The translations under genes and the position numbers were made by a program. Positions 8,532 to 57,000 of a DNA stretch of 64,000 nt are shown here, piece by piece; positions within the stretch are counted from its first letter, which is position 1; every line of letters begins with the position of its first letter. This DNA comes from Anaerolineaceae bacterium 4572_78. GTDB lineage: Bacteria; Chloroflexota; Anaerolineae; 4572-78. The stretch is from assembly GCA_002084875.1 (NCBI GenBank), contig NBMH01000005.1, forward strand, positions 27,284 to 91,283, read 5' to 3'. The notes under the pieces were generated by a model. That model worked only from the letters and a program-made list of their open reading frames with translations, made no database searches and was not told the DNA's origin.

Positions 8532-8675
8532 CTTCATTTCCCATTTTGTCAGTAGACCCCACCCCGTGAACGGGAGGGGAGCAGTCACTTCCCCTGCAGG
8601 CGAGGGGATTGAGGGGGTATTTTGTTCCCTATCCCTGTGGGGAGGGCTAGGGTGGGGCAAGACTGTTCAATGCTA
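8532..8675. repeat. Composite element: TTTGTCAGTAGACCCCACCCC module, several R3 G-rich hairpins and a TIR-like end
   Basis: Homologous, with indels, to 32514-32654. It ends in CTGTTCAATGCTA at 8663-8675. Confidence 0.85.
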
Positions 8676-9539: not shown

Positions 9540-9665
9540 GGCTGTTCAAAGCTTGCTTTGACATGAAAAAGCAAGCTTTTTCGCTCCATTGTGCGACCAT
9601 GTGAAGGAGGGGAATCGTAGTACTCCCATCTCCTTGTAGGGGAGGGGTCGGGGGTGGGGTCTACT
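9539..9665. repeat. Composite element: truncated TIR fused to an R1 core, then TTGTGCGACCATGTG, R3 and GGGGTGGGGTCTAC
   Basis: It starts at the yhhQ stop codon. GGGCTGTTCAAAGCTTGCTTTGACATGAAAAAGCAAGCTTTTTCGCTCCA. The terminal module is the reverse complement of the 8551-8565 module. Confidence 0.85.
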
Positions 9666-15847: not shown

Positions 15848-16002
15848 CACTCTCCCTCTGGGAGAGGGCTAGGTGTAGGGCTAGGGCTGTTAAACGCTGT
15901 TTTTTGACAAGATAAACTGGAGGGTCAAAGCTTGCTTTGACATGAAAAAAAGCAAGCTTTTTCGCTCCACTGTATGACCACATGTAAGGGCGTATGGCCA
16001 TA
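15848..16002. repeat. Composite element: R3 hairpin, degenerate TIR, a full R1 core with both arms and a partial R4
   Basis: CTCTCCCTCTGGGAGAGGG, then GGGCTGTTAAACGCTG, then TTTTTTGACAAGATAAACTGGAGGGTCAAAGCTTGCTTTGACATGAAAAAAAGCAAGCTTTTTCGCTCCA, then GTAAGGGCGTATGGCCATAG. Confidence 0.85.
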
Positions 16003-18132: not shown

Positions 18133-18190
18133 AAAGCTTGTTTTGACAGTCACGGCAAGCATTGACACTCCAAATTTTTATGACCATGTA
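18133..18190. repeat. Degenerate R1 copy in the thiB leader
   Basis: AAAGCTTGTTTTGACAGTCACGGCAAGCATTGACACTCCA, then TTTATGACCATGTA. Confidence 0.6.
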
Positions 18191-19636: not shown

Positions 19637-19699
19637 GTAGGGGCAGTCCTTGTGGTTGCCCTCATTACTTGGAGCGTCAAAGCTTGCTTTGACGCTCCA
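19637..19699. repeat. Degenerate R4 plus a short-form R1 palindrome
   Basis: GTAGGGGCAGTCCTTGTGGTTGCCCTCATTAC, then TGGAGCGTCAAAGCTTGCTTTGACGCTCCA (19670-19699). It lies between the secG stop and the SBP start. Confidence 0.85.
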
Positions 19700-19714
19700 G
19701 TAATCTTGATTATC

Positions 19715-21373
19715 ATGCAACAATATCTAAATTGGCAAGTGTTTATTGCATTGGGAGGCATATTATGTTTAGTAATATATCTCAATGCCATCAATATCAT
19801 TACCAGTCAAGAGCATCCCATCGAAGTTACACCAATCGGGCGTAGCATATACCGTGAAGGCATCGTGGATTTGCCTGTTTCATTCAACCCACTGCTAGAC
19901 ACAAATAATCCTATTGACCAAGATGTTGTACACTTTGTTTTTGAAGGTCTACTTCGGGAAGATGGTTTTGGCAACCTTGAACCTGTTTTGGCAAAAGACT
20001 GGCACATGTCCGAAGATGGAACAATGTATGAATTTGAGTTACATCAAAATATTCACTGGTCAGATGGTAAGCCCTTCACTTCCGACGATGTCATTTTTAC
20101 ATTGAACCTGTTGAAAAATCCCGACTTTCCTAGCAATCCCACATTTAAACAAGCCTGGAAAAATGTTGGCATCAAACAAATAGGACATACAATACAATTC
20201 ACCCTAGAAAATCATTTGCCTGTATTTCCTTACTACACCACCTTTAAAATATTACCGAAGCATATTTTAGAGGATGTACCTATTGAGGATTTTCTAACGC
20301 ATGACTTTAACTTATCTCCCATTGGAACAGGTCCCTTCAAGTTAGTTGAGGCAACCGATAAACATATTTTGCTAAACGTCAATGAATATCATCTCCGTAC
20401 TCGTCCTCACATGTCCGAAATTGAATTTAATATATACCATGATACCAATGCTCTAATTCAGGCATTTGTTGAAGAAGAAATTGATGCATTTGGTCAATAT
20501 ACACCACAAGTGCAACATCAGGTGAAATCAAATTCTATCACACAGACATCTTATCTGTCTCATGCTAATTTGTACAATGCTTCGCTACCTCGTTATAGCA
20601 TTATTTATTTTAATCTCCTATCAAAAGACACACTTTCATTTTTCCAAGAAGCTGATATTCGCCATGCACTTTTCATGGCAATAGACCGTCAAGCTATCAT
20701 TGACGAATTGCTTACCTCGCAGGCTTACATGGCGAATGGACCAATACCACTGTGGAATTGGGCTTATAATCATAACCAGTTATATCCTACGCATGATACA
20801 GAACAAGCGTTCAAATTGTTAGACCAAATGGGTTGGGTAGATACCGATGGGGATAGTGTTCGTGACAAAGATGGGGTGCCTTTTACATTTACTATGTTAG
20901 TAGTTGATGATGATGAACAAATTGCAATTGCCAAACAAATTAGCCAATATTGGCATGAAATTGGTATCGATTCTACAGTTGAGCCTGCTTATGAAACTTT
21001 GACAAGTCGCTTGCAAAACCATGATTTTGAAGCGGCGTTAGTTGAAATAAAATTGTTGGGTGACCCTAATCTGTATCCATTTTGGCATCAAAGTCAAATT
21101 GAAGAAGGACAAAATTTTGCGGGTTGGGATAATTCTGAGGCTTCAACAATTCTTGTAGAGGCTCAACAGGCAATAGAGAAATCGGACAGAATCATGCACT
21201 ATCTTGAGTTTCAACGTATCTTTGCCACAGAATTGCCTGCGATTGTACTGCACTATCCTGTTTATAATTATCTTGTACATGACAAGGTAAAAAATGTCCA
21301 ACTAACTCCATTGAACACACCCGCAGACCGATTTCGTACTTTTAGTGAATGGTATATTAAACTTGAAGAATGA
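19715..21373 (+). CDS. ABC transporter substrate-binding protein, family 5 (peptide/nickel type)
   Basis: The track ORF starts at 19652, inside an R1 palindrome. The in-frame ATG at 19715 gives MQQYLNWQVFIALGGILCLVIYL (signal/anchor). This is followed by LEPVLAKDWHMSEDGTMYEFELHQNIHWSDGKPFTSDDVIFTLN, which is typical of SBP_bac_5. Confidence 0.8.
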   Translation: MQQYLNWQVFIALGGILCLVIYLNAINIITSQEHPIEVTPIGRSIYREGIVDLPVSFNPLLDTNNPIDQDVVHFVFEGLLREDGFGNLEPVLAKDWHMSEDGTMYEFELHQNIHWSDGKPFTSDDVIFTLNLLKNPDFPSNPTFKQAWKNVGIKQIGHTIQFTLENHLPVFPYYTTFKILPKHILEDVPIEDFLTHDFNLSPIGTGPFKLVEATDKHILLNVNEYHLRTRPHMSEIEFNIYHDTNALIQAFVEEEIDAFGQYTPQVQHQVKSNSITQTSYLSHANLYNASLPRYSIIYFNLLSKDTLSFFQEADIRHALFMAIDRQAIIDELLTSQAYMANGPIPLWNWAYNHNQLYPTHDTEQAFKLLDQMGWVDTDGDSVRDKDGVPFTFTMLVVDDDEQIAIAKQISQYWHEIGIDSTVEPAYETLTSRLQNHDFEAALVEIKLLGDPNLYPFWHQSQIEEGQNFAGWDNSEASTILVEAQQAIEKSDRIMHYLEFQRIFATELPAIVLHYPVYNYLVHDKVKNVQLTPLNTPADRFRTFSEWYIKLEE

Positions 21374-21383
21374 CAAACAGCAC

Positions 21384-21433
21384 TGGAGTGAAAAAGCTTG
21401 CTTTTTCATGTCAAAGCAAGCTTTGACACTCCA
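21384..21433. repeat. Long-form R1 core
   Basis: TGGAGTGAAAAAGCTTGCTTTTTCATGTCAAAGCAAGCTTTGACACTCCA. It lies 11 nt after the SBP stop and 25 nt before the next ATG. Confidence 0.9.
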
Positions 21434-21457
21434 CATCAACTACTAAAGAAGTCCATC

Positions 21458-23509: not shown

Positions 23510-26500
23510 TTATTTCAAAATAATCGGCAAATAAATATACTCACTGTTAACAGGTAATGTTACTTCTTCCATTTCCTGAGAGCTCATCATTGTCCAACAA
23601 GAAAAATGATTAATTTGAGCCGTGATGCGGTTTGCTTCTTTATCTATACTAACACTATCTACACCCGCCCAAGCACTAATATCGGCAGAAAGGAAAGCAA
23701 TGGATAAATCATCTTCATTAATACCGAGTGATTCCAATTCATTCTTTGTGTAGTACCAAGTCATAATGATATTAGTATTAAAATCACTGACAATTTGTTT
23801 ACCACTACTATTCTCATAAACAGAAAAATAATAACTGTATCGCAAGGGACGAGACAGACGAGTATTTAACAAATTATCAACGGAGGGAGTAATTGAAATG
23901 CGAACAGTATCAGTAGTGGGCATTGCTCCACCAGGAATTTCAATGTGAGTACCATCATCAAGGGTGTACGACCACCCAACAGCAGGATCAAAGGTATCTA
24001 CCACACCTTCGGGAAAACTGTTTGGAGCTTGTTGCATGACAATATCAGCTGTCTGATTGGTGGTAGACATGACAACCGTAGTTGGGGTTATTGTTTCGTA
24101 GTAAATGGCACTATTTTCAGGATTATAGTTTGCTCCGATGTACCATGTTGTACCTGTTACTACATTTAAGGTAAAATCGCCAGTTGAGTCGGTGCGGGTG
24201 CTGGTATGGTGTCCATCTTTTGACCATGCCCAGACTAATGATTCAGGGGCAAGTGTTTTTGTGCCTTGTTCAAGGTAATATGCAGTACCTAGAATTGTTC
24301 CCCCTTTTTCCTTAAATTGCAAAGTCAAGCTAATAACAGAATTTGCTGTAGGTGTTATCACTTGCATGGTTGGTTGCATCATGTCCCAATGGATGGGCCC
24401 ATAAGCACCCACTTGATACGGAATACCTGAGGGGACATGCATTTCAAAATAACCGTTCCCTTCGCTATCATCCTCAATAAAGATTTCAGGATATGTTTCA
24501 GAACCAGCATAATAAGCCCAGACTTGGGCAAAGTTTTGATTATCTCCGTCGGGGTTTTTGATAATGCCTCTAATGGTGCTATCAGCTAACAGGACTGTAA
24601 AATTTTGGGTAGCAGTACTGCTATGGGTAATAACAACCGATTCATTTGGAATGGCATACTTGAGATATTGGGTGGAAACTAGCGAATAACCTAAATGCCA
24701 TGTGCCTGCTGAAACAGGCAATTCGTATTGACCTGTATTGGCATCAATTCTAGTTACTTGCCATGCTCCTTCGTCACTTAGGGCAAAGACTTCGCCTTTT
24801 AGATTACTGACAGCTTCTTCTTCACCTGTAGCATTACGGGTGTAAAATTCACCCTGAATAATACTATCATTTGATAATAGGGTAAAGGTAACGGTATAGG
24901 TTTCTTGTTGTGTTGATGGTTTGTGCGGTAAGGAAACCTCATCTGGAGCGTCAAACTCTGGTTTGACAGTCAAGGCAAGAAAGGTTTTCGAAAACCTTTC
25001 TTGTCTGACCATTATCCCATGCCCTCGTTGAACAGGGGTCTCCTGATGCTCCTCTCCTTCAAAGGGGAGGGGTTGGGGTGGAATCTTTGCTACATCAATC
25101 GCTTGCTCTTGACTGATTGAATAGCCACTATTAGGAGCTAACCATATCCCAATTTGATATGTCCCTTGTGGTACATTCATGCTAAACTGACCGTTTTCAA
25201 TTGGACTGGCGGCAAGTGGTCTTAGTTTATCAGACTCACGAGCATAAGCCCAACCATCCACATCAATTAATGGCACTCCATTGGCATCATGCACATGTCC
25301 TTGAATGACATTAGAGGTTGGTGTCAATTCAAAATCAACTGTTGCAGTCATGTCTTTTGTAACTTTAATACGTTGAGGTGGTTGGCTAACGTAAGTCGAG
25401 GTGTAAGGAGGTGTTACTTGCACTAGCCATTCTTTAGCTTGGGCATATATTGAAGATTGTTGATTATCATCTGCGGCTACTACAGCAATGTGATATTTGC
25501 CATCTGCATCAGTTAAGGTAGAAATGGAATCGCCATGATGTTGCCAGACATGCACCATAACATTGCTAACAGGTATATCATCATCACTACGTATCACCTG
25601 TCCCATGATAACCGATGTTTTATTTTGCAATTGAATCACCCCAATATCATTTGTGCGTCCCACATCCACATCAAGTGGCGAGACAAAAGGAGCATGCCAA
25701 TTGGGATACTTGGTCTCATCAATTTCAATGTCAACATTATACACCCCAGCCACCACAGGAACAGTAAAGTTGCCACTGAAATCTACAGGGGCAATATTAA
25801 ACATGCCTCCATCTGTGTCATAGACAGTGATAGAGATTGCTTTGCGAGGAATGATTGGCGGACCTTGTATCTGACCAATAATAGTGGCATCAGTGTCTTG
25901 TACAATAAAATCGGCTTGTTTTTCTTCAGGGGAATTATCATCAGCAAACTGAACTATCTGCGTTTCATCGGCAAACATCCATTCAACTGCTCCATGATTA
26001 AAGATAGGGTATACGCTTACTTCCCAAGTACCGGGCGAAGCAGTCAGTTCAAATTCACCATTTTTATTGGTGAGGACATGTATCCAATTCCAATCTTCTT
26101 GCTGAACGGCAACTACTGCCACATGCTCAACAGCGTTTTGACTTGGTATTGCCACCACACTACCGACAATGCGTTTGAGGGATTGCTCAAAGCTAATACC
26201 ACCTAAATCTACCATGTAATTGGTATCCGTAATTACAAAAAGTTTAGCGGGTGGAGGAAGTAATCCCATGCCACCTGCTCCCCAAGGTGATGACACTTCT
26301 ACGGTGTAACTTCCAGTTGGCAGTCCACCAAATTGAAAATTTCCGTCTTGCCGACTTATGGTATGTTCCAAAACCGAATAATCATGGTTGTAAACATGAA
26401 TTATAGCTTTATGAACTGAATTACTATCAAAATCAACCACATGTCCCCGTACACTAACTTTGGTTAGGGTTAGAGGGTTTGTAAGTTCAATCGTTTTTGT

Positions 26501-28051
26501 TTCGGTGATGACCTGAAAGACCACCTCCGATTGGGCATAATTTTGATATGTTTCATTTTGCGGAGGGTATGCTTGAATAAACCATTCGCCAGGCATAAGA
26601 TTGGTTATTTGAAAATTACCTGTTTGGTCAGTAATGCTAGTTTTGGGGTGCATATCATTTTCTGATAAGGCTCCAACTACCCCTCCTACAACAGGTGAAC
26701 CATCGGGTAAAACCACCCGTCCTAAAATTGAGGTAGATAATTGTTCTTCTAAATAGAAGTCAATATTTTTGGTTATGGTATAAACCGTAACGATATCGGC
26801 TGACCATTCATTAAATTGATGGTCATAAAACTGCATGCCATATCCTAGAACATCTATCCATACTTTGTAATCCCCTGCTAAGAGATTGCTAATGGTATAC
26901 GTTCCTGTGGCATCAAATTCTGTGGTCTCACTTTGCCATACACCATCGCCAGGTAATAATGTTGTATTGCTAATTGATACTGCTCTGACAGTTCCATGTG
27001 TAATGGGCATAGTGCCATCCACATTTGTGGCTCTACCTGATATTTTCGCCTCAATTGGCAGATAAAAATTAGTACCTCTTACAATTCCATCTGAAACAAT
27101 AACAATGCTAGGATTACTCAAATCAAAGATATTGTTGTATGCCATTGGGATATAGCCTGATGCTTGTACTAAGACATGGTATTCCCCAGCAGTTAAATTT
27201 GTGAAGGTATAATGCCCACTGGCATTAACTTGAATAAAATCAATGACACCATCTGTAACGCGTTCTATAAAAACAGTGGCATTGGTAATGGGGTTATGGT
27301 TAATATCATGCACTCGCCCAGCAATACCGCGTTGAGGCTCTAAGGTAAAGTTTTTATTGGTAGCGGTCATGCCGACCGTAATTGTTACCTCATCAGCCGT
27401 AGCCCAACTAGGCTTGTTATTATAAAATTGAGGTACAAAACTAGGTGCAGTAGCAAGCAATTTATATTGTCCAACAGCTAAACCTTTAATGGCATAAGTG
27501 CCATCACTGTTAACAAATTCACCCATCCATGGGGTGGTGTTAGGATCTTCAGTAATATTTTTAGCAGAGACGATAACATTTGTTATAGGAATAGATGAAT
27601 CTACAGTCCCTACAACAGAACCACCAGCCCCAAGAATAAAATTAATATCATTGGCAACCGACTGGTTTGTGGTTACGGTTATAAGCGTTGCCTGCTGAGG
27701 ATAGTAGGCATCAGGAAAATCGCTTGAGTAAAACTCGGAGGCGTACCCAAATTTTCCGACGCGGACATAGTAGTTCCCTTCTTCTGAAATCATGAGGGCA
27801 TAATCCCCTTCATTGTCGGTGGTGGTGGTAACTACTGGAGTTTGAGCATTGGGTAATAAAGCTATTACGGTAACACCAGGAATAACCATATCGGAATTAT
27901 CAAAAATTTGTCCGTTTATACTTCCAATATTTTCAGTGATATTTTCTTCTCCTTTGACGGTAAGAGTATTGCTAGAGAATAATATCAAAAGTAAAAGTAT
28001 AAAGCTTGTGCCTAAAGAGAGTGAAAAAATAAATGATTTAAGTGTTTTCAT
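23510..28051 (-). CDS. Large secreted protein built from many carboxypeptidase-regulatory-like / Ig-like beta-sandwich repeats
   Basis: 1513 aa. N-terminal signal-like MKTLKSFIFSLSLGTSFILLLLILF. It has many (roughly 15-20) repeats of the type G.V.D..G.P+.GA.V......T.TD.NG.Y.+..L..G.Y. It ends in ..SEYIYLPIILK*. It contains an in-frame repeat-element insert at 24943-25082. Confidence 0.7.
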   Translation of the reverse strand: MKTLKSFIFSLSLGTSFILLLLILFSSNTLTVKGEENITENIGSINGQIFDNSDMVIPGVTVIALLPNAQTPVVTTTTDNEGDYALMISEEGNYYVRVGKFGYASEFYSSDFPDAYYPQQATLITVTTNQSVANDINFILGAGGSVVGTVDSSIPITNVIVSAKNITEDPNTTPWMGEFVNSDGTYAIKGLAVGQYKLLATAPSFVPQFYNNKPSWATADEVTITVGMTATNKNFTLEPQRGIAGRVHDINHNPITNATVFIERVTDGVIDFIQVNASGHYTFTNLTAGEYHVLVQASGYIPMAYNNIFDLSNPSIVIVSDGIVRGTNFYLPIEAKISGRATNVDGTMPITHGTVRAVSISNTTLLPGDGVWQSETTEFDATGTYTISNLLAGDYKVWIDVLGYGMQFYDHQFNEWSADIVTVYTITKNIDFYLEEQLSTSILGRVVLPDGSPVVGGVVGALSENDMHPKTSITDQTGNFQITNLMPGEWFIQAYPPQNETYQNYAQSEVVFQVITETKTIELTNPLTLTKVSVRGHVVDFDSNSVHKAIIHVYNHDYSVLEHTISRQDGNFQFGGLPTGSYTVEVSSPWGAGGMGLLPPPAKLFVITDTNYMVDLGGISFEQSLKRIVGSVVAIPSQNAVEHVAVVAVQQEDWNWIHVLTNKNGEFELTASPGTWEVSVYPIFNHGAVEWMFADETQIVQFADDNSPEEKQADFIVQDTDATIIGQIQGPPIIPRKAISITVYDTDGGMFNIAPVDFSGNFTVPVVAGVYNVDIEIDETKYPNWHAPFVSPLDVDVGRTNDIGVIQLQNKTSVIMGQVIRSDDDIPVSNVMVHVWQHHGDSISTLTDADGKYHIAVVAADDNQQSSIYAQAKEWLVQVTPPYTSTYVSQPPQRIKVTKDMTATVDFELTPTSNVIQGHVHDANGVPLIDVDGWAYARESDKLRPLAASPIENGQFSMNVPQGTYQIGIWLAPNSGYSISQEQAIDVAKIPPQPLPFEGEEHQETPVQRGHGIMVRQERFSKTFLALTVKPEFDAPDEVSLPHKPSTQQETYTVTFTLLSNDSIIQGEFYTRNATGEEEAVSNLKGEVFALSDEGAWQVTRIDANTGQYELPVSAGTWHLGYSLVSTQYLKYAIPNESVVITHSSTATQNFTVLLADSTIRGIIKNPDGDNQNFAQVWAYYAGSETYPEIFIEDDSEGNGYFEMHVPSGIPYQVGAYGPIHWDMMQPTMQVITPTANSVISLTLQFKEKGGTILGTAYYLEQGTKTLAPESLVWAWSKDGHHTSTRTDSTGDFTLNVVTGTTWYIGANYNPENSAIYYETITPTTVVMSTTNQTADIVMQQAPNSFPEGVVDTFDPAVGWSYTLDDGTHIEIPGGAMPTTDTVRISITPSVDNLLNTRLSRPLRYSYYFSVYENSSGKQIVSDFNTNIIMTWYYTKNELESLGINEDDLSIAFLSADISAWAGVDSVSIDKEANRITAQINHFSCWTMMSSQEMEEVTLPVNSEYIYLPIILK
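24943..25082. repeat. Composite R1 variant, R2a, TIR-like and R3 insert inside the 1513-aa CDS, read through in frame
   Basis: CTGGAGCGTCAAACTCTGGTTTGACAG, then CAAGAAAGGTTTTCGAAAACCTTTCTTG, then CGTTGAACAGGGG, then CTCCTCTCCTTCAAAGGGGAGGGGTTGGGGTGG. The minus-strand translation is IPPQPLPFEGEEHQETPVQRGHGIMVRQERFSKTFLALTVKPEFDAPD. Confidence 0.85.
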
Positions 28052-28221: not shown

Positions 28222-28515
28222 TTACTCCTTTTTTCCTCGTAGGGGAAGGGACTGGGGGTTGAGGTCTGTTTGCTCCCATGCCTGCAAAATTTCCCGATTG
28301 ACAGACACATTACCTAAAAACGACTCCCGCCAAGCATCATTCCCAACCCTATCCGCTTTTTCCATCAACAAAGCATGAGCCTCTTTCAAGGTAACTTGAG
28401 CCTGCTCATCAAGACCTGCTTTTTGAAATACCCGATACACAGTCAGATAAACATGCAAGGAGTCTTCAATACCTTTAATGCCATGCTCTGCCAGCCAGTA
28501 TTGAATTTGCCTCAT
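28222..28515 (-). CDS. C-terminal fragment of the cyclase-STAND-TPR protein, in a shifted frame
   Basis: The 97-aa ORF MRQIQYWLAEHG..AHALLMEKADRVGNDAWRESFLGNVSVNREILQAWE looks like the usual tail of TPR-type STAND regulators. It overlaps the end of ORF 28475-32377 by 41 nt in another frame. Its last 12 codons lie in an R3 G-rich module. Confidence 0.6.
   Translation of the reverse strand: MRQIQYWLAEHGIKGIEDSLHVYLTVYRVFQKAGLDEQAQVTLKEAHALLMEKADRVGNDAWRESFLGNVSVNREILQAWEQTDLNPQSLPLRGKKE
28235..28266. repeat. R3 G-rich module forming the last codons of ORF 28222-28515
   Basis: CCTCGTAGGGGAAGGGACTGGGGGTTGAGGTC. It encodes ..DLNPQSLPLRG.., and the last two codons (KE) and the stop follow just outside the module. 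Confidence 0.7.
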
Positions 28516-31500
28516 GGGCTGATCCCCACTTACCTAAACTTTCTAATGGCAAACCAAGATAGGTTAGACTAAAACCTTTTCCTCGTTTGTCACCTATATC
28601 CTGCTGGATATTTATAGCTTGTTCACAATAATTCTGAGCATTTTCATATTCGCCCAAAGCATGACAAACAAGACCTATATTATGTAACCCAATTGCTTTT
28701 GCAAAGCTATTATTAATGGTATGGAAAATACTTATTGCTTGAGAAAGTTGTTTTTTCGCTAAAAGATAATTGCCAATATTTTGGTAAACTTGCCCTAAAC
28801 CACCTGATGCATAAGCTATTCCTTGTCGAAAACCGATTTTGCGAAATATATCTAAGGCACGTTTACGATATTGATGTGCGTCGTAAGCATAACCTTGTGT
28901 ACAAAGTGGATTACTCGAATTAAATAAAACCATTCCCTCGCCAAAAAGATCCCCTATAGCCTGTCTAATAGTAAAGTCTTGACGATAATAGTCTTGAGCT
29001 ATCTGGTTTTCCCCTAATTCAAAATGAATATTACCTAACACTGTAAGAATATATGCCTTACTTTGTTTTTCAGAAGTAGATTCAAATATAGTTAATGCTT
29101 GCTTACCATAGGTAATTCCTTCTTCATATCTACTTTGCCGTTGAACTATAACTGATAAACGACTGAGACTTTTCCCTTCGATACTTCTATTTTTAACTTG
29201 CCTGGCTATATCAAGAGCTGTATTGGTTACTGAAATAGCTTTGTTATACCTACCAACCTGTTCATAATAAGCCGACTGGCGATTATAAACTTTAGCCTGC
29301 TCCTCCTTATCATCCCATGCCTTAGCAATCATCAACAATGCTTCTAAATCAGGCAGTTGTAAATCCCGTTTTCCCATGCGGTTGTAAACTATCTCACGGG
29401 TTGAAATGAGGTCGAATAGCTCTTCCTCTAAAGATTTATTTTGCATGGTTGAGAAGATGGTTTTAATGTTAGCTAGGTCTTGTTCTATATCTAACAATCC
29501 TAAAGCACGATTGAGATAATCAACAGCCATTTCATTAGCAAATTGAGCGGCGGCTTGCTTGCCTGCTAACGTACAGTAATTGCGTTCTTGCTCACGATTT
29601 TCGGCATGATAGTAGTGGTGTACCAAAAGAGAGTAATATGGAGCTAGGCTTTCTTCGGTTTGGTTGTAGGTATTTTCGTACCATTGAGCAACAACGGTAT
29701 GAAATTGGCGGCGTTGGGAATAAAGAAGGGTGCTGTAGGCAACTTCTTGGGTGATAATATGTTTGAAAATATACTGCATATTTAGCATATCATCTGAAAT
29801 CATGCTTTCAGGTGACTCATAAGGAGTCAGGTCTAAGTAAACCAATGAGTCTAGATAGGTACGCAAACGTCTGTAGCTAACAGATTTAGGGTAGATAGCA
29901 TTAAGGGTATTAAATGCAAATGTTCTGCCGATGACCGAAGCTACTCGAACCGTTAGATATGTTTCAGGGGGTAAGCGGTCAATCCGAGCCATGACAACTC
30001 CTTGTATATTATCGGGCAGAGTCAGCTGTTCTAAAGAACCTGAAAGCAGACAACGGTTATGACCATTTACACTCTGAATGGAAATGACATTTTCATCACG
30101 TAATGTGTGAATTAACTCCTCTGCAAAGAAAGGATTTCCCTGTGAACGTTCCTTGATTAATGTGGTCACTTCTTCAGGAAATTCAGATACATCCAAGCGG
30201 TATTTAATCAAATCAATAATTTCTGCATCACTGAATATGTCCAATGTCATTACTTTTGTATTGGGCAAACTGGTTAAAGCAACATACTCCAGCCTCATTT
30301 CTTCGCCTTGCAGTGGACGAAGTGGAACAAGCAAAAGCACAGGATAATCTTCTAAACTTCGTGCCACTTCTAAAGCAAGTTCCCATGAAGAAGGGTCAAG
30401 CCAATGAGCATCTTCAATGGTGATAATGAGCGGTGTATTTTGCAATTCAGCCCGTAGCAAGTCAATCAACAAAGAGGTTAAACTCTCACGCCGTAGTTTA
30501 GGGTCAAGGCTTTGAGTTAGTTCATTCTCAGGCAAACCTACATTTAGAATATCATTGAGAAGCGGACTTCGTTGTATCAAACTAGGATTTAGGTCATGTA
30601 TCCGATTTTCAATGTATGCATGGCGTTCAGATTGGTTTTTACCCTCCAATTGCTCAATATTGAAGAATCGAAAAAAGATGTCACGCCAAACGCGGTACGG
30701 GGTGTTTTGTTCAATGCTGAGACCTGCTCCCATTAAAACTCTTATGTTTAACTCTTGAGCCAAACGATGAATTTCAGCCACGAAACGTGATTTGCCAATT
30801 CCTGCTTCACCTTCAATAAATAACACATGGCTATGAACATTTGGAGTGTCAAATTTTGCTTTGACGGTCAAACTAAGGTTTGACGCACCAGGTGCAAGGT
30901 TTGACGTGCCAGATGCAATATTATCTAGGATTGATTTAATTTTGCTTAATTCTTGTTCACGCCCAACGAATTTAGTTTCAGTTGATATTATTGCTAAGGA
31001 TTGAAAAGCTATCTTACCAATAGGAAAATATAGGGGAACAGGATGAGTTTTACCTTTCACTTTGACAGGCGGCAATGTCTTAAATCTAATCCGATTTTTA
31101 GCAGATTTGTATGTATCTTCGTCGCATCTAATAGGAACATCAGTTGGGTCTTTAAGATATGCTTTGGCTGCCACACCCATTAAACGAGCTGCCATGTTTG
31201 CCTTATCACCCATGACAGTGTATTCACGCCGTGTTTCGCCGCCAACTGGACCTGTAAAAAGTTGCCCTGTTGTCATGCCGATAGCAACTGTAATCCCATG
31301 TTGTTTGATATTTTTCTGCAAGTCTAGGGCAAAACGAACACATCGTTCGGGGTCATTTTCATGCGAAAATGGTGGAGCTCCAAATAAGGCTAATATCATG
31401 GTGCCTTTATCATCAACTGAAACACGTACAATACGTCCATCATATTTATGAATAATGGTCTCAGTGGTTGTAAACAAAACCTGCAATTGGTCAAGGATAT

Positions 31501-32377
31501 TTTCTTTTTTATAGTCAATCCCTGTCATAGCCTTGATAAATACAACCGTTAAACGGCGGAGTTCAGCTAACCATTCCGCTTGGTCGGCTTCAATGCGATG
31601 GGTGATAGTATCGGGAACGTAGGCTTGTAAGGCTTCAATAACAGCCTCTTGTTGGATTTCTGATAATGTATGCCAATCAGTATGCGAGACCTGACAGGTT
31701 TTTGAAAACCTGTCAGGTCTTAATAAATCTTTCGCTTCGGGACTAAGTACAACATCACCCTTTTCAGCAATTGCTTCCGCTTCGGAGATTTGACGGAGTG
31801 GGTCGCCAGTAATGACATAATCCCAACTGACAAATTCTCCTTGCTCAAACGTTCCGCCGATGTTCATGGCGATAATTTCGCCCGCTCCAATGCTGACTGT
31901 CATATCGAGTTCAATGGAACCGATAATTGTCTCGACGTGACGGTATTCAGCACGCATGACTGCTTGCATTGCTTGAGCGGTCTGTTCGGCTTGTGAAACT
32001 GTATACCCTAGTTTGTCATCGGTTGAAGGAAAAACAACAATCATGGCATCCCCACCAAATTTGACCACCTGTCCTCCCTCTTTTTCAGTCAATTCAATCA
32101 TTCTGCTAAAATAAAGATTGAGGACACGGGTTAATTCCTCTGCTCCTTCAGGACCCTTCCGTGATAATTTCTCTGCCAATGGTGTAAAACCTGATACATC
32201 TGCAAAGAGAATAACCGCTTGATATCGGGTCAAATTGTATCTTTGTGGTAGCCCCTGATTATGATAAATTGTTTGGGCTACGACTGGTGGAACATAACTA
32301 GCTAATTTTATAATATCGTTTATTGCCACAGAAACTCCTTTCAGGATTAGGTGTTTTAACTCACGTAGCATGGACAT
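28475..32377 (-). CDS. Signal-transduction protein: two class III nucleotidyl cyclase domains, a STAND-type P-loop ATPase (AAA_16-like) and TPR repeats
   Basis: 1300 aa. CHD1 has ILFADVSGFTPLAE..KFGGDAMIVVF. CHD2 has ..GAPPFSHENDPERCVRFAL..EYTVMGDKANMAARLM. Walker A is GEAGIGKSRF and Walker B is LIITIEDAHWLD. The C-terminal half is TPR-rich. Two repeat-element segments lie in frame, at 30842-30916 and 31687-31720. Confidence 0.85.
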   Translation of the reverse strand: MSMLRELKHLILKGVSVAINDIIKLASYVPPVVAQTIYHNQGLPQRYNLTRYQAVILFADVSGFTPLAEKLSRKGPEGAEELTRVLNLYFSRMIELTEKEGGQVVKFGGDAMIVVFPSTDDKLGYTVSQAEQTAQAMQAVMRAEYRHVETIIGSIELDMTVSIGAGEIIAMNIGGTFEQGEFVSWDYVITGDPLRQISEAEAIAEKGDVVLSPEAKDLLRPDRFSKTCQVSHTDWHTLSEIQQEAVIEALQAYVPDTITHRIEADQAEWLAELRRLTVVFIKAMTGIDYKKENILDQLQVLFTTTETIIHKYDGRIVRVSVDDKGTMILALFGAPPFSHENDPERCVRFALDLQKNIKQHGITVAIGMTTGQLFTGPVGGETRREYTVMGDKANMAARLMGVAAKAYLKDPTDVPIRCDEDTYKSAKNRIRFKTLPPVKVKGKTHPVPLYFPIGKIAFQSLAIISTETKFVGREQELSKIKSILDNIASGTSNLAPGASNLSLTVKAKFDTPNVHSHVLFIEGEAGIGKSRFVAEIHRLAQELNIRVLMGAGLSIEQNTPYRVWRDIFFRFFNIEQLEGKNQSERHAYIENRIHDLNPSLIQRSPLLNDILNVGLPENELTQSLDPKLRRESLTSLLIDLLRAELQNTPLIITIEDAHWLDPSSWELALEVARSLEDYPVLLLVPLRPLQGEEMRLEYVALTSLPNTKVMTLDIFSDAEIIDLIKYRLDVSEFPEEVTTLIKERSQGNPFFAEELIHTLRDENVISIQSVNGHNRCLLSGSLEQLTLPDNIQGVVMARIDRLPPETYLTVRVASVIGRTFAFNTLNAIYPKSVSYRRLRTYLDSLVYLDLTPYESPESMISDDMLNMQYIFKHIITQEVAYSTLLYSQRRQFHTVVAQWYENTYNQTEESLAPYYSLLVHHYYHAENREQERNYCTLAGKQAAAQFANEMAVDYLNRALGLLDIEQDLANIKTIFSTMQNKSLEEELFDLISTREIVYNRMGKRDLQLPDLEALLMIAKAWDDKEEQAKVYNRQSAYYEQVGRYNKAISVTNTALDIARQVKNRSIEGKSLSRLSVIVQRQSRYEEGITYGKQALTIFESTSEKQSKAYILTVLGNIHFELGENQIAQDYYRQDFTIRQAIGDLFGEGMVLFNSSNPLCTQGYAYDAHQYRKRALDIFRKIGFRQGIAYASGGLGQVYQNIGNYLLAKKQLSQAISIFHTINNSFAKAIGLHNIGLVCHALGEYENAQNYCEQAINIQQDIGDKRGKGFSLTYLGLPLESLGKWGSAHEANSILAGRAWH
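30842..30916. repeat. R1-derived segment with a triplicated TTTGACG..CCA arm inside the cyclase-STAND CDS
   Basis: TGGAGTGTCAAATTTTGCTTTGACGGTCAAACT, then a 21-nt tandem duplication: AAGGTTTGACGCACCAGGTGC (30875-30895) and AAGGTTTGACGTGCCAGATGC (30896-30916). It encodes ASGTSNLAPGASNLSLTVKAKFDTP. Confidence 0.8.
31687..31720. repeat. R2b perfect palindrome (16+16 nt, 2-nt centre) inside the cyclase-STAND CDS
   Basis: AGACCTGACAGGTTTT TG AAAACCTGTCAGGTCT. It encodes RPDRFSKTCQVS in the segment between the two cyclase domains. Confidence 0.9.
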
Positions 32378-38394: not shown

Positions 38395-38435
38395 ACAGCA
38401 TAGATTGGTCGCGGTAAAGAAATCTGTCATGGTTA

Positions 38436-38469
38436 AAACAAGAAAGGTTTTTAAAAACCTTTCTTGTTT
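38436..38469. repeat. R2a perfect 34-nt palindrome AAACAAGAAAGGTTTTTAAAAACCTTTCTTGTTT
   Basis: 17+17 nt with no spacer. It lies in the hypF-hydrolase intergenic region. Confidence 0.9.
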
Positions 38470-38506
38470 GACGGTTATATCGTATAAATTCAAAGGAGAA
38501 AATATT

Positions 38507-40185: not shown

Positions 40186-40334
40186 GGGCTGTTTAATGCA
40201 CATGGCTTGGGAGATTTTTCGATATGATTTTCAATCACATGGTCGCACAATGGAGCGAAAAGGCTTGCTTTTTCATGTCAAAACAAGCTTTGACGCTCCA
40301 ATTTATCTTGTCAAAAAATAGCATTGAACAGCCC
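40186..40334. mobile_element. Most complete MITE-like unit: TIR-like ends flanking a full R1 core with both arms
   Basis: GGGCTGTTTAATGCA (40186-40200) and TAGCATTGAACAGCCC (40319-40334) are inverted. Inside are CACATGGTCGCACAATGGAGCGAAAAGGCTTGCTTTTTCATGTCAAAACAAGCTTTGACGCTCCAATTTATCTTGTCAAAAAA. It has no coding capacity. Confidence 0.5.
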
Positions 40335-40493
40335 TATCATGTGACTGACCTAGAACTGACTCCTTGGGAAAGTCCCTTGTGGAAAATTGAGGATTGGCGA
40401 CCGAAGTAGAATCGCGGAGCACAATAGCTTTAGCTAGTGCATGCAAAGAATATAACCGTTCGCCCTTCCCAAAAATGAAATACACTCTAGTAT

Positions 40494-44308: not shown

Positions 44309-46711
44309 TTACTTCAATACAATTGGCAAATAGATAAAGTACTCGCTGACCGTCTCACCAATTGAGAGAATGGCACTCTCTTTAATGAGGGAATTATCAG
44401 CAAAGGAAGTGATAAAATCACGTCCATTAAGGTCATTGAGTTTTGTATCTGCTAGACGTAAGGTGACATTTGTTCCCACTGTGACATCTTCTGCCAAAGT
44501 CATGGAAATCGTTGCTATGTTACCATCGCCGCTCAGTTGTTTTGTATCAGCTAGAGCAATGCGTAGTTGACCCAGCCCATCATCATAAAATTCTAGATTG
44601 AAAGTTGTTGTCTTATCTCCTTTAGTGACATTACTGATACCACTAATAACATCTTTATCATAAATAACAACAAATTGACCACCTGCAAAGTTGTGTAAGT
44701 TTGTTGCTTGGAGAGTCATTTGAATTGTTGAGCCTGCCGCACCAATGACATCCACTAATGCAATGGTGGTTGTTTCACCAGACCTGACAGGTTTTTGATT
44801 GGTGGTCGGAATGGGGGGCCATTGACCATGAACAGCATAATACAAAATCATACTGGCATCAGCAGCTTCAATTATACCATTACCATTTGGGTCTCCCGCA
44901 AATATTTGTTCTTGGCTTGGAGGGCTAGGTGGTGTTTGCCCCACTGCAAATTGCAAACTTAATAAGGCATCGGCTGCCTGCACTACACCATTTCCATTCA
45001 AGTCACCCAAAACATATTGAGCCGTCTCTTCAACATAAAAAGTACCATCCTCTAATATTAGTGGCACAGGATTGAATAGGTCATCAGGGGTGTAAATCGT
45101 GGAACCACCGACATTACTAATAAAATCTTTCAGGTCAAGAGAACTTGTAACTGTCGCTGTATCATTTGCTGTCATAGCTTCCACTAGATAACAGTAAGTT
45201 GCTTTTGGAACTAGATTGCTATCTTCATCAAAATAAACCGTTTCTAAGACATTATCAGCGATTATATCAAAATTTAAGAAACTGCCTGTGCCATCATTTC
45301 TAAGCATGCGATAGATGCGATAATGGGTAACTTCAGCATTATTGGTAACATTCCAATCTAGTTCGATGTTTCGATGCCCTGCTTCGACTTGGAGCATGAT
45401 AGGGACGATACCTGGTGGAACAGGTATCGGTGTTGCTGTTGGTGCAGGGGTCATGGTTTGTGAAGGGGTAGTGGTTGGGGTATTAGGTGTCTGACTTTCA
45501 GTTGCACATTTGTAAATTTTTGAATCGACGTTTTTAGTAGAATCATTTTGATTATTAGCCACAGCTAAATATGACTCATTATCAATTGTGAAAAACTCCC
45601 AATCTTCTGCACCATTAGTCAAAATAAGTTGACTTTCAGTAAAACTACTACCATTCCATTGATAAATCACAGAATTGATAACTTTAGTTGAGCCATCGGA
45701 AACATTAGCTACAACCAAATAGTGATTATTGTCAATACTAAAGAATTTCCAATCACGAGCACCTTGCGTAAGTATACTTTGAAATTCAATAAAACTGTTA
45801 CCATCCCACCGATAAATCACGGAATTGATATTCGAGGCGGAGTCATTATTGGTATTAGCTACAGCAAGATAGTGATTGCTATCAATGGTGAAAAACTCCC
45901 AATCATGTCCTCCACTAGTGAGAATGGATTGAAATTCAATAAAATTGGCACCATTCCATCTATAAATCTTGGAATTGATGTTACGAGTAGAACCATTAAA
46001 ATAATTACCCACCACTAAATATTGAGTATTATCAATGACAAAATATTCCACATCTTGAGCTCCTGTGGTGAGTATGGATTGGTATTCCACAAAGTTTGTG
46101 CCATTCCATTTGTAGATTTTGGAATAAACATCGCGGTCGGTATTTGTGCCGTCACAGTAGTTAGCCATAGCTAAATAATCGTCACTATCAATGGTGAAAA
46201 ATTCCCAGTCATTGCCGCCAATGGTGGGAATGGATTGAAATTCCTCAAAACTATTACCATTCCATTTGTAAATCTTTGAGTCGATATTCCAGTTAGAATT
46301 ATCATTATTGTTAGCCACAGCTAAATAATCGTCACTACCAATGGTGAAAAATTCCCAATCCCAAGCATTGTAAGTAAGTATGGATTGATATTCCACGAAG
46401 CTACTACCATTCCATTGATAAATCTTTGAATCAACACTGGTTGTATAAAGCTCTCCACGATTAGCAACGGCTAAATACGAAACATTATCTATCGTGAAAA
46501 ATTCCCAGTCTTTAGCTCCACTAGTTGGGATAGACTGAAATTCCTCAAGTTGCAATTCTTGAGACAAAGCCGACGATGTACTATCACTTATTATCATGCT
46601 CAGAGTGGCAATAATAATGGTGATGATTAGAAAAATTAAATCTTTTATTATTATACCTGTTGTGTTTGATTGGGGCAAATTTGGGTAATAGAAATATAAG
46701 AAAATTGGCAT
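44309..46711 (-). CDS. Secreted or anchored multidomain protein: seven EAR/EPTP-like propeller repeats, P/T linker, FN3, dockerin, cohesin-like domain and a conserved C-terminal tail
   Basis: 800 aa. There are seven repeats of ..SKIY+WNG.SF.E+QSI.T.GA.DWEFFTID...YLAVAN.. (aa 56-402). FN3-like region at aa ~436-525. Two EF-hand-like dockerin loops, GDLNGNGVVQAADALLSLQF and GDPNGNGIIEAADASMILYY. A cohesin-like beta domain at aa ~648-785. It ends SEYFIYLPIVLK*. Confidence 0.7.
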   Translation of the reverse strand: MPIFLYFYYPNLPQSNTTGIIIKDLIFLIITIIIATLSMIISDSTSSALSQELQLEEFQSIPTSGAKDWEFFTIDNVSYLAVANRGELYTTSVDSKIYQWNGSSFVEYQSILTYNAWDWEFFTIGSDDYLAVANNNDNSNWNIDSKIYKWNGNSFEEFQSIPTIGGNDWEFFTIDSDDYLAMANYCDGTNTDRDVYSKIYKWNGTNFVEYQSILTTGAQDVEYFVIDNTQYLVVGNYFNGSTRNINSKIYRWNGANFIEFQSILTSGGHDWEFFTIDSNHYLAVANTNNDSASNINSVIYRWDGNSFIEFQSILTQGARDWKFFSIDNNHYLVVANVSDGSTKVINSVIYQWNGSSFTESQLILTNGAEDWEFFTIDNESYLAVANNQNDSTKNVDSKIYKCATESQTPNTPTTTPSQTMTPAPTATPIPVPPGIVPIMLQVEAGHRNIELDWNVTNNAEVTHYRIYRMLRNDGTGSFLNFDIIADNVLETVYFDEDSNLVPKATYCYLVEAMTANDTATVTSSLDLKDFISNVGGSTIYTPDDLFNPVPLILEDGTFYVEETAQYVLGDLNGNGVVQAADALLSLQFAVGQTPPSPPSQEQIFAGDPNGNGIIEAADASMILYYAVHGQWPPIPTTNQKPVRSGETTTIALVDVIGAAGSTIQMTLQATNLHNFAGGQFVVIYDKDVISGISNVTKGDKTTTFNLEFYDDGLGQLRIALADTKQLSGDGNIATISMTLAEDVTVGTNVTLRLADTKLNDLNGRDFITSFADNSLIKESAILSIGETVSEYFIYLPIVLK
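44779..44795. repeat. Half R2b arm (AGACCTGACAGGTTTTT) inside the propeller-cohesin CDS
   Basis: It encodes KPVRS in the dockerin-cohesin linker. The same peptide and DNA occur at 54194-54209. Confidence 0.7.
45506..46546 (-). repeat. Seven tandem ~47-50-codon EAR/EPTP-like blades (coding repeat)
   Basis: The core DWEFFTI / DVEYFVI / DWKFFSI recurs seven times, each followed by YL(A/V)VAN and SKIY.WNG. Confidence 0.8.
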
Positions 46712-48579: not shown

Positions 48580-48643
48580 AAGACAAGAAAGGTTTTTAAA
48601 AACCTTTCTTGTCTTGATTGTCAAAGCAAGCTTTGACGCTCCA
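48580..48643. repeat. R2a perfect 36-nt palindrome plus a half R1 core between convergent genes
   Basis: AAGACAAGAAAGGTTTTT|AAAAACCTTTCTTGTCTT (48580-48615), then GATTGTCAAAGCAAGCTTTGACGCTCCA. It lies 16 nt after the sat-cysC stop and 12 nt from the PIG-L stop. Confidence 0.9.
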
Positions 48644-48654
48644 AATGACCGTTT

Positions 48655-52621: not shown

Positions 52622-52721
52622 GTTAGAAATCCAATTTTTCCAAAACAGGTTCTTTGGAGCGAAAAAGCTTGCTTTTTCAGGTCAAAGCAAGCTTGGACCC
52701 TCCAAAATTGAATTTCCAAAA
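52622..52721. repeat. R5 hairpin with an R1 core inserted in its loop, the 'filled' form
   Basis: GTTAGAAATCCAATTTTTCCAAAA, then [CAGGTTCTT TGGAGCGAAAAAGCTTGCTTTTTCAGGTCAAAGCAAGCTTGGACCCTCCA], then AAATTGAATTTCC. Compare 38359-38394. Confidence 0.85.
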
Positions 52722-54025: not shown

Positions 54026-54076
54026 CGGGAGCGAAAAAACTTGCTTTTTCATGTCAAGGCAAACCTTGAAGCTCCA
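54026..54076. repeat. Long-form R1 core (diverged) in the leader of the giant gene
   Basis: GGGAGCGAAAAAACTTGCTTTTTCATGTCAAGGCAAACCTTGAAGCTCCAG. Confidence 0.8.
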
Positions 54077-54098: not shown

Positions 54099-57000
54099 GT
54101 GAAACATTTTTTAATTAATCTTATCAGGATAATTGTCATCGTCGCAAACGTATTTCCTGTAAGTGCAGTATTCGCTTACGGAAATTCTCGCTCAAAACCT
54201 GTCAGGTCTGAAGTCAATTCGCCAAGACAAGAAAGGTTTTCAAAACCTTTCTTGTCTGTCCCCTTAGCTGATATTGTCTCTCGCCATGAAAATCAAAATT
54301 ACACTCCTATTTTTGTCAATATTCCTAGCTCGTTGACAATTTCTAAACCCGATTTACATGTCAAAGCAAGCTTTGACCCTCCTATCGAACCCCTCTCCAT
54401 GTGGGAGAGGGGCAGGGGTGAGGACTCAAGTTTTGCTATTCCTGCTTGGTTTATTGGTGACCAATCTGAACCTGATGTTTCGGATTCGGATTCCGATATA
54501 TTGCCTGATTGGTTTACCACTTCATCGTTCCAAATTTACATGCCTATTATTTTTGGAAATTATACATCCCAACCATTACCTCTCACTACCAATAGGTCTA
54601 TCCCTGAATCCGTGCTTGAAGTTACCCTTGAGGGACCTGATGGCAGTAGAAGTGGCATGGTGGCGAGTTTAGGTTCACCTGTCGGTAGCGGGGAAATTTA
54701 TACTGCAACTGTGTTTAATGATTCTGATGAGACCGCTTACGGTGCGTATTTCACTGTGACATGGCCGTCGTTTTTTACATGGGACGGTTATTTGGATGAA
54801 GGCTATTCGGCGGATGCATCATTAACCCTCTCACCAACTGTCGGAGCAAATAGTGCAAAATTTAATCCGAGTGCAACTCTCGATTTAGCCCCTAACGAAA
54901 CTGTTACATTTACATTTAAACTACGAGCAACATGCGTGGCAGAATCGGCACAACAAGCACGAGCAGGAATCCGTTATAACGCCGATGACGGAAGTTCCCC
55001 AGATGATTTAAACACTGGTGGTTTGAATATTACCACAGGTCAAGCAAACTTAGTCATCCGCAAAGACCCTGATTTAAGCAATGTTTCCACATCAGACATG
55101 GGCAAATCGATTACATGGATTGTCACGGTGCAGAATACTGGCTTGGGCATTGCCTACGATGCTTATGTAACTGACACGGGTGGGATTGGGCTTTCGCAGC
55201 CGAGTGGTGATTTGACTCCATCGGCTCATATCGCCTCATTGGGCATCAACAAAAAATTTACCTATACCGTCGTCGGTACAATTGAGGCATGTAACTTCAC
55301 CAATGTTGCACAAGCCGCTTGGACATGTGGCAATGCTGTCGGCGATGCTACACAATCCAATCCCGTCAGTAGCACAGCTTCCGCCATGTTTGATTTGATC
55401 CTTTCCAATCCACAAGTTGATGTCAGCGGGCCGGAAACGTTTGATTATTGTTCTGACATGACCAAAACAATTTATGTGACATTGACTAATAATGGCGGGC
55501 CTGTCGATAATTTTTATTACGATAGCAATCTCGAAGATAACAGTTTTCTAAATGTAATCACCAACACTGTTCCCACCACATGGGATTATAACCCTGCTAC
55601 TGGCATCTTCAGTTATACCGATGGTCCCTCGTCAAACTTGACAGGATTTCTACCTGACCAAAGCGAAAATCCTGAAATTGTCCTTTCGTTTGATGTCAGC
55701 AATGCTGATAGCGTTTGTACCGCAGGTAGCGGTTCGATTTCGCTTACGCCATTTTACAGCGATATTTGTAACAACTTACAAACCAAAATAACTGACATTT
55801 CATGGAATTATAATTATGGCGGGATAACTTTACCCACCTTAGACATAACCAAAACTGCACCCGCCGAAGTAGCCACAGGACAAACTTATGATTATGAAAT
55901 TATAGTTAGAGGCGATAATCCTATCCAAATTGACGGGCGAGTTATCATAACCGATATTCTACCAAATGGTGTTTTATATCAAAGTCATGTCAAATCAACA
56001 GGCAATATTACACAAACAGGTAATACGGTTTATTGGGATTTTGAGCCTGGCATTCTTCCTACATTTGATGAAGCATTGACTATAACAGTTAAGGTTAATG
56101 ATACCAAAGGAGTATGTCCTGCGGGCGATATTTTGAACAATAGAATTACCGCTTCAGCAGATACCTTATGTTCTAGCTGTTCCACATTAACGGCAACCAC
56201 AAATACAGAAACGATAATCATCAATATGCCCACAGGCATTTCTGCTAGTGGCGGCTACAACGGCTCAACACAAACTTGCGATACAGGTATTACTATCTTT
56301 AATCATTTTGATGTCAGCGGCTCAGCCGTTATCACATGGAACGGAGCAACCTATACTGACACACTTGGTTTGAGTGGGGCAAGTTCGTTAACTGAAACTG
56401 CCAACTTTATTTATCAAAGTAATTCATTCGAAGTGTTTGTCAACAACACAGATTATAGCAGTCATGTTACACCCATAATGAAAAATGACAGATTTGTCGT
56501 TGACTTATCTCCATTACATGGGCAGGGAGCATTAACACAAAACATGACCGTCTATTTCACATACACCCTCAACTTTACCGATGCTTCACTAGACAATTCT
56601 TCTGAAACTTTTTTAGATTGGTGGGAATTTTACATGCCAAATGCTGATAGTTGTGCAGGCAATCAATCTTATAACGGTAATATTTCTGTTGACATTGAAC
56701 GCGGTGATCTACAAGCTAGTATTTCACCAAGTATCTTACGTAGCTGTCAAACTAATGTTGCCGAAATTACTGTTTCAGGAGCAGTCACCACATATGAAAC
56801 ATCAGAAATTGTCGTTCAATTTAAGAGTTCCACCGAACAAATTCAATCAGTCGTTGCTCATAACGTTTTCAGTTATACGGGCGGATTAAATGGCATTCCA
56901 GTTACCGTTACCAATGATACCGATATTGGTGGTGGACAGGGCGTTATCACCTTTACATTTGAAAAACCTGTTGACATTAGCAGTACGGGAACTATTCAGT

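Follow-up and report, generated by a model that had tools for sequence, protein, structure and literature searches.

How do short palindromic repeats that otherwise lie mostly between genes come to be translated inside one of them? The question is raised by a 64,000-nt window (the whole stretch of DNA analysed here; positions 27,284 to 91,283 of contig NBMH01000005.1, Anaerolineaceae bacterium 4572_78, phylum Chloroflexota), in which a gene for a 1513-aa protein reads through a composite of repeat modules at 24943–25082. The original prediction, made from the letters alone, had described this composite as four modules inserted in frame, in the manner of the Rickettsia palindromic elements (RPEs). 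We conclude that the segment is very probably a mosaic cluster of small non-coding palindromic elements, of the repetitive extragenic palindromic (REP) or MITE (miniature inverted-repeat transposable element) type, inserted in the tenth repeat of a secreted beta-sandwich protein. The proposed likeness to RPE insertions held up: paralogous repeats and a distant orthologue lack the segment, a structure model assigns it low confidence, and two further genes of the window are read through modules of the same kind.

The gene (23510–28051, minus strand) is one unbroken open reading frame (ORF) of 1513 aa. Pfam detects CarboxypepD_reg (PF13620) in eight significant stretches (E 3e-70), and a hidden Markov model bootstrapped from the protein itself resolves 13 beta-sandwich repeats of this type, followed by a C-terminal domain. 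By inspection, the N-terminus (MKTLKSFIFSLSLGTSFILLLLILFSS..) is signal-peptide-like, and a structure model of two repeats resembles pilins and adhesins of Gram-positive bacteria; it is reasonable to regard the protein, which is presumably produced, as a surface or secreted one. Positions 24943–25082 translate as ..IPPQPLPFEGEEHQETPVQRGHGIMVRQERFSKTFLALTVKPEFDAPDEVSLPHK.. within the uninterrupted ORF, just as had been proposed, and the flanking repeats stand in the same frame, so that the gene is not split—a continuity that we found in three assemblies.

Compared with its paralogues, one of the 13 repeats is too long. Twelve of the repeat-to-repeat gaps measure 9–25 aa (ten of them 9–16 aa), and the gap between repeats 10 and 11 measures 81 aa. 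At the end of each repeat, a strand like ..IKVTKD leads through a short turn into a final strand like ATVDFEL; repeat 10 ends in ..AIDVAK, then 60 residues, then ETYTVTFTLL. With aa 990–1049 taken out, it is collinear with all 12 paralogous repeats. Measured in this way, the extra segment comprises ~60 codons (24905–25084, minus strand; borders uncertain by a few codons) and lies within repeat 10, where it occupies the loop that leads to the final beta-strand. This corrects two details of the original prediction, namely an insert length of ~140 nt, which is not a multiple of three, and a position between two Ig-like repeats. The empty site that it had asked for exists at a distance. Collinearity with P0003, a distant orthologue of 999 aa, extends to 63% of the protein and takes in the distinctive C-terminal domain and the repeat 10 motif GWAYAR; at the site, P0003 reads only ..VSVPPGAAQRPAELQL.., without the insert. 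A close orthologue with an empty site did not turn up among 5.8 billion proteins, which yielded only identical copies and relatives of at most 29% identity; of the other two members of the protein's cluster, one is a 1513-aa copy with the insert, and the other is a fragment of 370 aa from the N-terminus, which ends before the site.

An AlphaFold2 model of aa 912–1158, built on aligned repeat pairs, both paralogous and homologous, reached a mean predicted local distance difference test (pLDDT) score of 81, with both domains above 90. At the insert, pLDDT was below 50 for aa 987–1018 and 59–74 for aa 1022–1051, and the TYTVTFTLLS strand that follows was predicted confidently. The model thus predicts that the insert, placed in the loop that precedes the final strand of repeat 10, is mostly disordered.

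Might the composite be a product of assembly, in which a repeat collapsed into the gene, or in which a frameshift is hidden by an error of the consensus? The sequence does stem from metagenome assemblies, and relative to the public contigs the window has five deletions of ~120–146 nt elsewhere. Insert and flanks are nonetheless identical in three assemblies, which represent at least two samples plus a separate GenBank assembly: the same 280 nt (insert and 50 nt on each side) recur in a second sample's ENA assembly and in GCA_029935775.1, which argues against a consensus error. The frame is moreover maintained for 464 codons downstream of the insert, and we give the artefact next to no credence. 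As for the five missing segments (at ~21985, 28508, 35890, 36070 and 58346), every public assembly of the contig contains them, the remainder being 99.97–100% identical. Part of murJ and the start region of hypF are lost, a cyclase/AAA/TPR gene is frameshifted and tRNA-Leu(GAG) is truncated; the losses look like an artefact of this sequence copy, not biology.

Read along the coding strand, the insert consists of an R3 module, a short non-repeated spacer, a composite of R2a and R1, and ~38 nt that match no family. R3 (25046–25084, minus strand, like the other modules of the insert) is the C-rich strand of a G-rich hairpin family and is translated as IPPQPLPFEGEEH. R2a (24969–25013), read as MVRQERFSKTFLAL, is the palindrome AGACAAGAAAGGTTTTCGAAAACCTTTCTTG extended by ATGGTC, and R1 (24943–24968) is the hairpin GTCAAAC-CAGA-GTTTGAC with a GCTCCAG tail, translated as TVKPEFDAP. 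All three proved to be real families. R1 (GTCAAAGCAAGCTTTGACGCTCCA, at most 3 mismatches) occurs in 14 copies in the window versus 0.00 expected in shuffles, and its tail TTTGACGCTCCA in 15 versus 0.3 expected. The R2a palindrome has three exact-pattern copies in the window versus 0 expected, plus one at 54225 with a 1-nt deletion; blastn-short gave R2a matches at 38439 and at 54225, and one R2a copy (38418–38478, plus strand) is intergenic, between hypF and an isochorismatase gene. The R3 family numbers ~7, with other copies at 8575–8614, 9615–9660, 28225–28265, 32541 (minus strand), 42014 (minus strand) and 54390–54423.

The fourth proposed module, a piece at 25014–25045 (minus strand) likened to a terminal inverted repeat (TIR), was rejected. 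It is no demonstrable repeat: neither the window nor 0.5 Mb of related loci contains a significant copy, and the stretch in common with its supposed counterpart at 40319–40334 is only ~10 nt (about CTGTTCAAYG). Part of it, GGGATAATGG, extends the R2a unit in one metagenome copy (L088; a 19-nt match). The TIR label probably goes back to the unit at 40235–40336, which has CATGTG at both ends and is one of three ~100-nt units (with 2232–2333 and 15881–15984) in which a long form of R1 is followed by a tail module of ~50 nt, ATTTATCTTGTCAAAAAATAGCATTGAACAGCCCTATCATGTG.

One match to the insert spans two modules. Positions 24939–25006 align with 48648–48581 over 68 nt at 87% identity (E 8e-13; blastn-short, region against window). 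This closest copy of the in-gene composite (48581–48648, plus strand) is intergenic, between the convergent sat-cysC and PIG-L genes. Of the three intergenic counterparts originally listed, that at 48580–48643 is therefore genuine; that at 40319–40334 dissolves into the ~10 nt just mentioned, and that at 54390–54423 falls in a called gene. A scan of metagenome contigs for the R2a core returned window-type R2a in five contigs, all from the Ga0190283 data set and with a GC content of 37–43%. In L088, L105 and L115, R2a is joined to R1 through the junction ..CTTGTCTTGACTGTCAAAGC.., as it is in the gene and at 48581–48648. Since the junction recurs, identical, in these five copies, R2a+R1 is a recurrent composite of ~70 nt and no chance juxtaposition. 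We also noted a different perfect palindrome, AGACCTGAAAGGTTTTCGAAAACCTTTCAGGTCT, that contains the R2a core and appears to be a widespread hairpin repeat, being present in many unrelated metagenome contigs with a GC content of 42–60% (L082, L086, L087, L089, L091, L097, L098, L100–L103, L107, L110, L116 and L118). Neither R1 nor R2a was found in viral contigs.

These copies bear on the view that the segment is a native linker or loop, either similar to intergenic repeats by chance or itself the source from which the intergenic copies derive. Such a linker would suit the ~70 of 180 nt that have no repeat match, and no close orthologue displays a recent empty site. It is difficult to reconcile, however, with the 68-nt match, with 14 copies of R1 where none is expected, with 12 paralogous repeats and P0003 that lack the segment, and with the abundance of the same modules in non-coding DNA of the window and of other contigs. 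We regard it as highly improbable and already largely refuted.

The modules themselves look like non-autonomous repeats. R1 comes in two forms, a 30-nt perfect palindrome (TGGAGCGTCAAAGCTTGCTTTGACGCTCCA) and a two-hairpin form of ~50 nt closed by TGGAGC/GCTCCA, and its stem has a compensated G-C to C-G variant, in which GTCAAAC..GTTTGAC replaces GTCAAAG..CTTTGAC; this variant is present in the copy within the 1513-aa gene, at 30866 and at 35861. Because the modules are short hairpins of high copy number, mostly intergenic, arranged in recurring mosaics and with compensated stems, we liken them to REPs and bacterial interspersed mosaic elements (BIMEs) or to MITE-type repeats. Most R1 long forms lie 15–35 nt or 140–310 nt upstream of start codons, in gene orientation (2254–2305, 15918–15969, 18160–18172, 19670–19699, 21385–21433, 52655–52704 and 54030–54076), a placement also seen in metagenome loci L105 and L115. 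In their outer stem, a GGAG-containing arm pairs with a CTCC-containing arm, and they may act in leader RNAs or promoters.

The clearest parallel to the insert lies in the neighbouring cyclase/AAA_16/TPR gene (28222–32377, minus strand). Here, three R1-type units (30836–30907, minus strand; 72 nt) are translated as TSNLAPGASNLSLTVKAKFDTPNV just before the Walker A motif GEAGIGKS. Aligned with 20 homologues (alignment A1), the best of which are from Anaerolineae/Chloroflexota at 45% identity, TSNLAPGASNLSLTVKAKFDTPNV stands out as a clean insertion of 24 columns, placed between a conserved Gly and the strand preceding Walker A. The 24-aa R1 cluster in this alignment is the best empty-site evidence available for the repeat family. 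The last ~14 codons of the gene and its stop (..DLNPQSLPLRGKKE) come from an R3 copy (28225–28265, minus strand); the resulting C-terminal tail ..NPQSLPLRGKKE uses the same frame as PPQPLPFEGEEH in the 1513-aa protein.

A giant gene on the plus strand, running from 54099 to beyond 64000, carries all three families. Its start codon is GTG, its ribosome-binding site reads AAGAGG, and its N-terminus is signal-peptide-like; directly behind this N-terminus lie R2a (54222–54257, translated PRQERFSKPFLS), R1 (54357–54383, translated HVKASFDPP) and R3 (54387–54425, translated EPLSMWERGRGED), all on the plus strand. The start at 54099 is used by the gene callers in three assemblies, and the product exceeds 4073 aa in the public contig. 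Since the gene called from 54099 reads through R2a, R1 and R3, the R3 copy at 54390–54423 is probably coding rather than intergenic. A further R1 copy in this gene (63961–63990, plus strand) is read in the other open frame, as SGASSLGLTG. In the window, one of the missing segments gives the giant gene a premature stop at 58409, leaving a 1436-aa version, and a fragment of the gene in one assembly has a Pfam CLIPPER match. The neighbouring 800-aa protein (44309–46711) has EPTP, dockerin and cohesin matches, and internal repeats of ~1 kb at 45507–46548 of its gene.

Two more apparent cases are spurious. R1 copies that seem to lie within the SBP5 (SBP_bac_5) and CTP-transferase (CTP_transf_like) ORFs are 5′ leader copies; the ORFs are called from upstream of R1 because its frame WSVKACFDAP is open. 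The true starts are likely the ATGs at 19715 and 21458, which follow the R1-containing regions of the calls (19652–19714 and 21398–21457, in public gene calls and mechanical ORFs).

In composition, the insert differs from its gene. Its GC content is 0.49–0.51 versus 0.405 for the whole gene, and only one of its three coding-strand frames is stop-free, the outcome to be expected when no insertions survive but those that keep the frame and bring in no stop. The insert mRNA folds with a minimum free energy of −57.5 kcal/mol (z −3.9), with CAUCAGGAG/CUCCAGAUG pairing to close a 112-nt unit; no intrinsic terminator-like site was seen in the insert. Strong terminal pairing of this kind might be expected of a segment that is removed before maturity, whether as an intron, as an intein or by translational bypass. 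Yet at the gathering threshold Rfam has no family in the window, group I and II introns included, and only noise in the insert; no intein or other Pfam domain lies within the insert, which is far too short for an intein; and an in-frame, stop-free segment does not need to be removed. Removal appears to us barely credible.

Alternatively, the insert may have been co-opted, as a flexible, protease-sensitive or binding loop of the surface protein or as an mRNA structure at which the ribosome pauses from one domain to the next. In favour of co-option are the strong mRNA fold, the short strand predicted for LALTV (pLDDT ~74) and the recurrence of the same reading frames of R1 and R2a in three proteins. 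As each module has one or two stop-free frames, however, shared frames are expected from survivorship, and a phmmer search of 1.84 billion representatives with the 62-aa insert peptide recovered only the 1513-aa protein and one junk-like ORF of 85 aa. On balance, co-option seems unlikely.

Insertion of a mosaic of hairpin repeats, the reading that we prefer, would have proceeded as follows. A whole number of codons (~60) would have entered in the sole stop-free frame, at a surface loop between the domain's last two strands; an insertion of this kind leaves the gene open and the domain still able to fold. The insert is most likely a tolerated, near-neutral passenger—like Rickettsia RPEs and intragenic REPs—and not a functional module. 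That the modules are or formerly were mobile, and in what order and number they inserted, we infer. A candidate mover would be a hairpin-recognising single-strand transposase, of the IS200/IS605 type or of the REP-associated tyrosine transposase (RAYT) type; alternatively, replication or repair at hairpins might have inserted the modules.

Several observations weigh against this account. No transposase or RAYT is found among the Pfam-annotated genes of the window. The ~70 nt of the insert's 180 that match no repeat family comprise the middle piece and the 3′ 38 nt. With the next relative of the 1513-aa protein being 24–29% identical, the insertion is not datable and its exact borders are not fixed. 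Inspection revealed no target-site duplication or direct repeat flanking 24905–25084, borders that are themselves uncertain, and presence/absence polymorphism of a module was not seen among the three assemblies. Finally, the moderate-confidence strand at LALTV suggests that the insert may not be purely disordered. A 25-nt difference between the assemblies L079 and L080 lies outside any repeat module.

The host is a member of the Chloroflexota by its own genes as well. Named relatives of the window's ClpX are all Chloroflexota (Anaerolineae, Anaerolineales, Limnocylindrales; at most 69% identity), the closest match overall being 77% identical; tig-clpP-clpX are encoded alongside an F420 ligase and a GT87 glycosyltransferase. 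The samples are probably Guaymas Basin sediment metagenomes, to judge from the label DOMB18-1. A Beggiatoaceae origin, considered in view of the G-rich hairpins and the Guaymas source, was discarded: TAACTGA arrays are absent, and ClpX points to Chloroflexota.

R1 reaches further than its host. A scan of species-representative genomes returned at least 76 loci (0.5 Mb), and all 76 among the matches listed belong to four lake metagenome-assembled genomes (MAGs) titled 'uncultured Methylococcaceae', with an R1 24-mer identical to that of the window. These MAGs are not close to the window (MurJ 30% and MetH 61–70% identical). Among the matches listed, R1 is very abundant in the Methylococcaceae loci (L003–L078; e.g., L016 2021–2140, L026, L009 and L042), where it sometimes forms tandem arrays with a 31–35-nt period or inverted pairs around a second hairpin. 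R2a is absent from these listed loci. Two of 208 R1 copies in them are intragenic; in the window, roughly a quarter are. A RAYT flanked by R1 was not recognised in the 76 listed loci, in which one ORF has R1 on both sides and, on inspection by eye, does not look like a RAYT. Within the limits of the matches listed, the shared occurrence of R1 in Chloroflexota and Methylococcaceae suggests a spread across phyla. Going beyond this, one might envisage a single modular hairpin family common to phyla and, in the Chloroflexota host, unusually prone to colonise giant secreted proteins and signalling ATPases, building loops from nested modules. We consider this rather doubtful; if true, it would amount to horizontal spread of a REP-like system and to ongoing protein novelty outside obligate intracellular bacteria.

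Several implications follow from our preferred reading of the insert. It would add a free-living, uncultured member of the Chloroflexota from hydrothermal sediment to the bacteria whose genes small palindromic repeats have colonised in frame, and it would mean that mosaic clusters of different families, and not only single elements, can be carried within a folded domain and beside a P-loop. In annotation, ORFs become longer through such repeats and acquire spurious N-terminal extensions, as they do here for SBP5 and CTP-transferase; in evolution, the repeats may serve as a source from which new surface loops arise. The occurrence of R1 in Methylococcaceae, if confirmed, would inform on the spread of REP-like families.

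How does this locus compare with known systems? BIMEs are extragenic elements built from the PU/REP motifs of Escherichia coli. The modules described here resemble them in the recurrence of motif combinations in fixed order (the R2a+R1 junction; R1 long form plus tail module), but have no sequence relationship to E. coli BIMEs. MITEs have TIRs of ~15–30 bp, whereas here only CATCAGGAG/CTCCAGATG, matching at 8 of 9 nt, bound the 112-nt unit (24937–25048), other composite copies have no matching left end, and the insert shows no target-site duplication. Bacterial MITEs with open frames fused to genes include ERIC (enterobacterial repetitive intergenic consensus) elements, the 107-bp Correia element and QMITE1 (PMC2229807, PMC5896051), and the in-frame fusions of ERIC and 107-bp Correia elements have been reviewed (PMC2229807).

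Another close parallel is offered by the REPs tagged GTAG or CGTC that occur within genes in several phyla (Di Nocera et al. 2013, PMC3733652). More than half of those intragenic inserts are dimers or clusters encoding 20–30 aa, and some clusters encode 43–82 aa (PMC3733652), which makes the phenomenon less unusual than the original prediction had rated it. Short hairpins with a conserved head and a CCA-type tail, arranged as singles, dimers and clusters, are common to these REPs and to our modules. R1 in particular shares with CGTC REPs a (C/T)GTC head, leading A-T pairs, a loop of 4 nt (CAAG or CTTG; 4–5 nt in CGTC REPs) and a tail ending in CCA: the tail is GCTCCA in 110 of the 338 units that matched loosely in the loci listed, and in most copies in the window. 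CGTC, TGTC or GGTC stands at the start of its units, with AAAG next. We nevertheless do not file R1 as a CGTC REP, because its AAAG/CTTT stem has 4 bp (7 bp with GTC/GAC) rather than 8–9 bp and because the GTC of its head pairs with a downstream GAC, whereas the CGTC REP head, which may also read TGTC or CCTC, is unpaired. In the GTAG REP (REPIN-RAYT) system, one end of the palindrome bears a GTAG tag and the repeats flank a RAYT gene present in single copy. The consensus sequences of R1, R2a and R3 contain no GTAG, R1 was not found in the supplementary text of PMC3733652, and CGTC repeats are not listed for Chloroflexi in that paper, which also describes CGTC REPs as being without a dedicated transposase and equates RPE-4 and RPE-6 with them (PMC3733652).

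The RPEs themselves are close as well. They are palindromic elements of the genus Rickettsia, with families RPE-1 to RPE-10, that lie between genes and, in frame, within ORFs, the first in-frame case of its kind (Ogata et al. 2000; PMC2229807, PMC3733652). The features that our locus shares with them are small palindromic repeats placed both in intergenic DNA and in frame in ORFs that stay open, at sites tolerated by the fold, with no transposase known. In-frame insertion at a fold-compatible site is seen here in repeat 10 and again before Walker A. The likeness is one of description, and the host belongs to the Chloroflexota, not to Rickettsia. Whereas an RPE is a single element of 105–146 bp, at least three families form the mosaic described here. 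This mosaic, its position in a beta-sandwich, the sister case at a P-loop and Chloroflexota as the host phylum, for which our literature search found no earlier report, are what set the locus apart among in-frame insertions of palindromic repeats.

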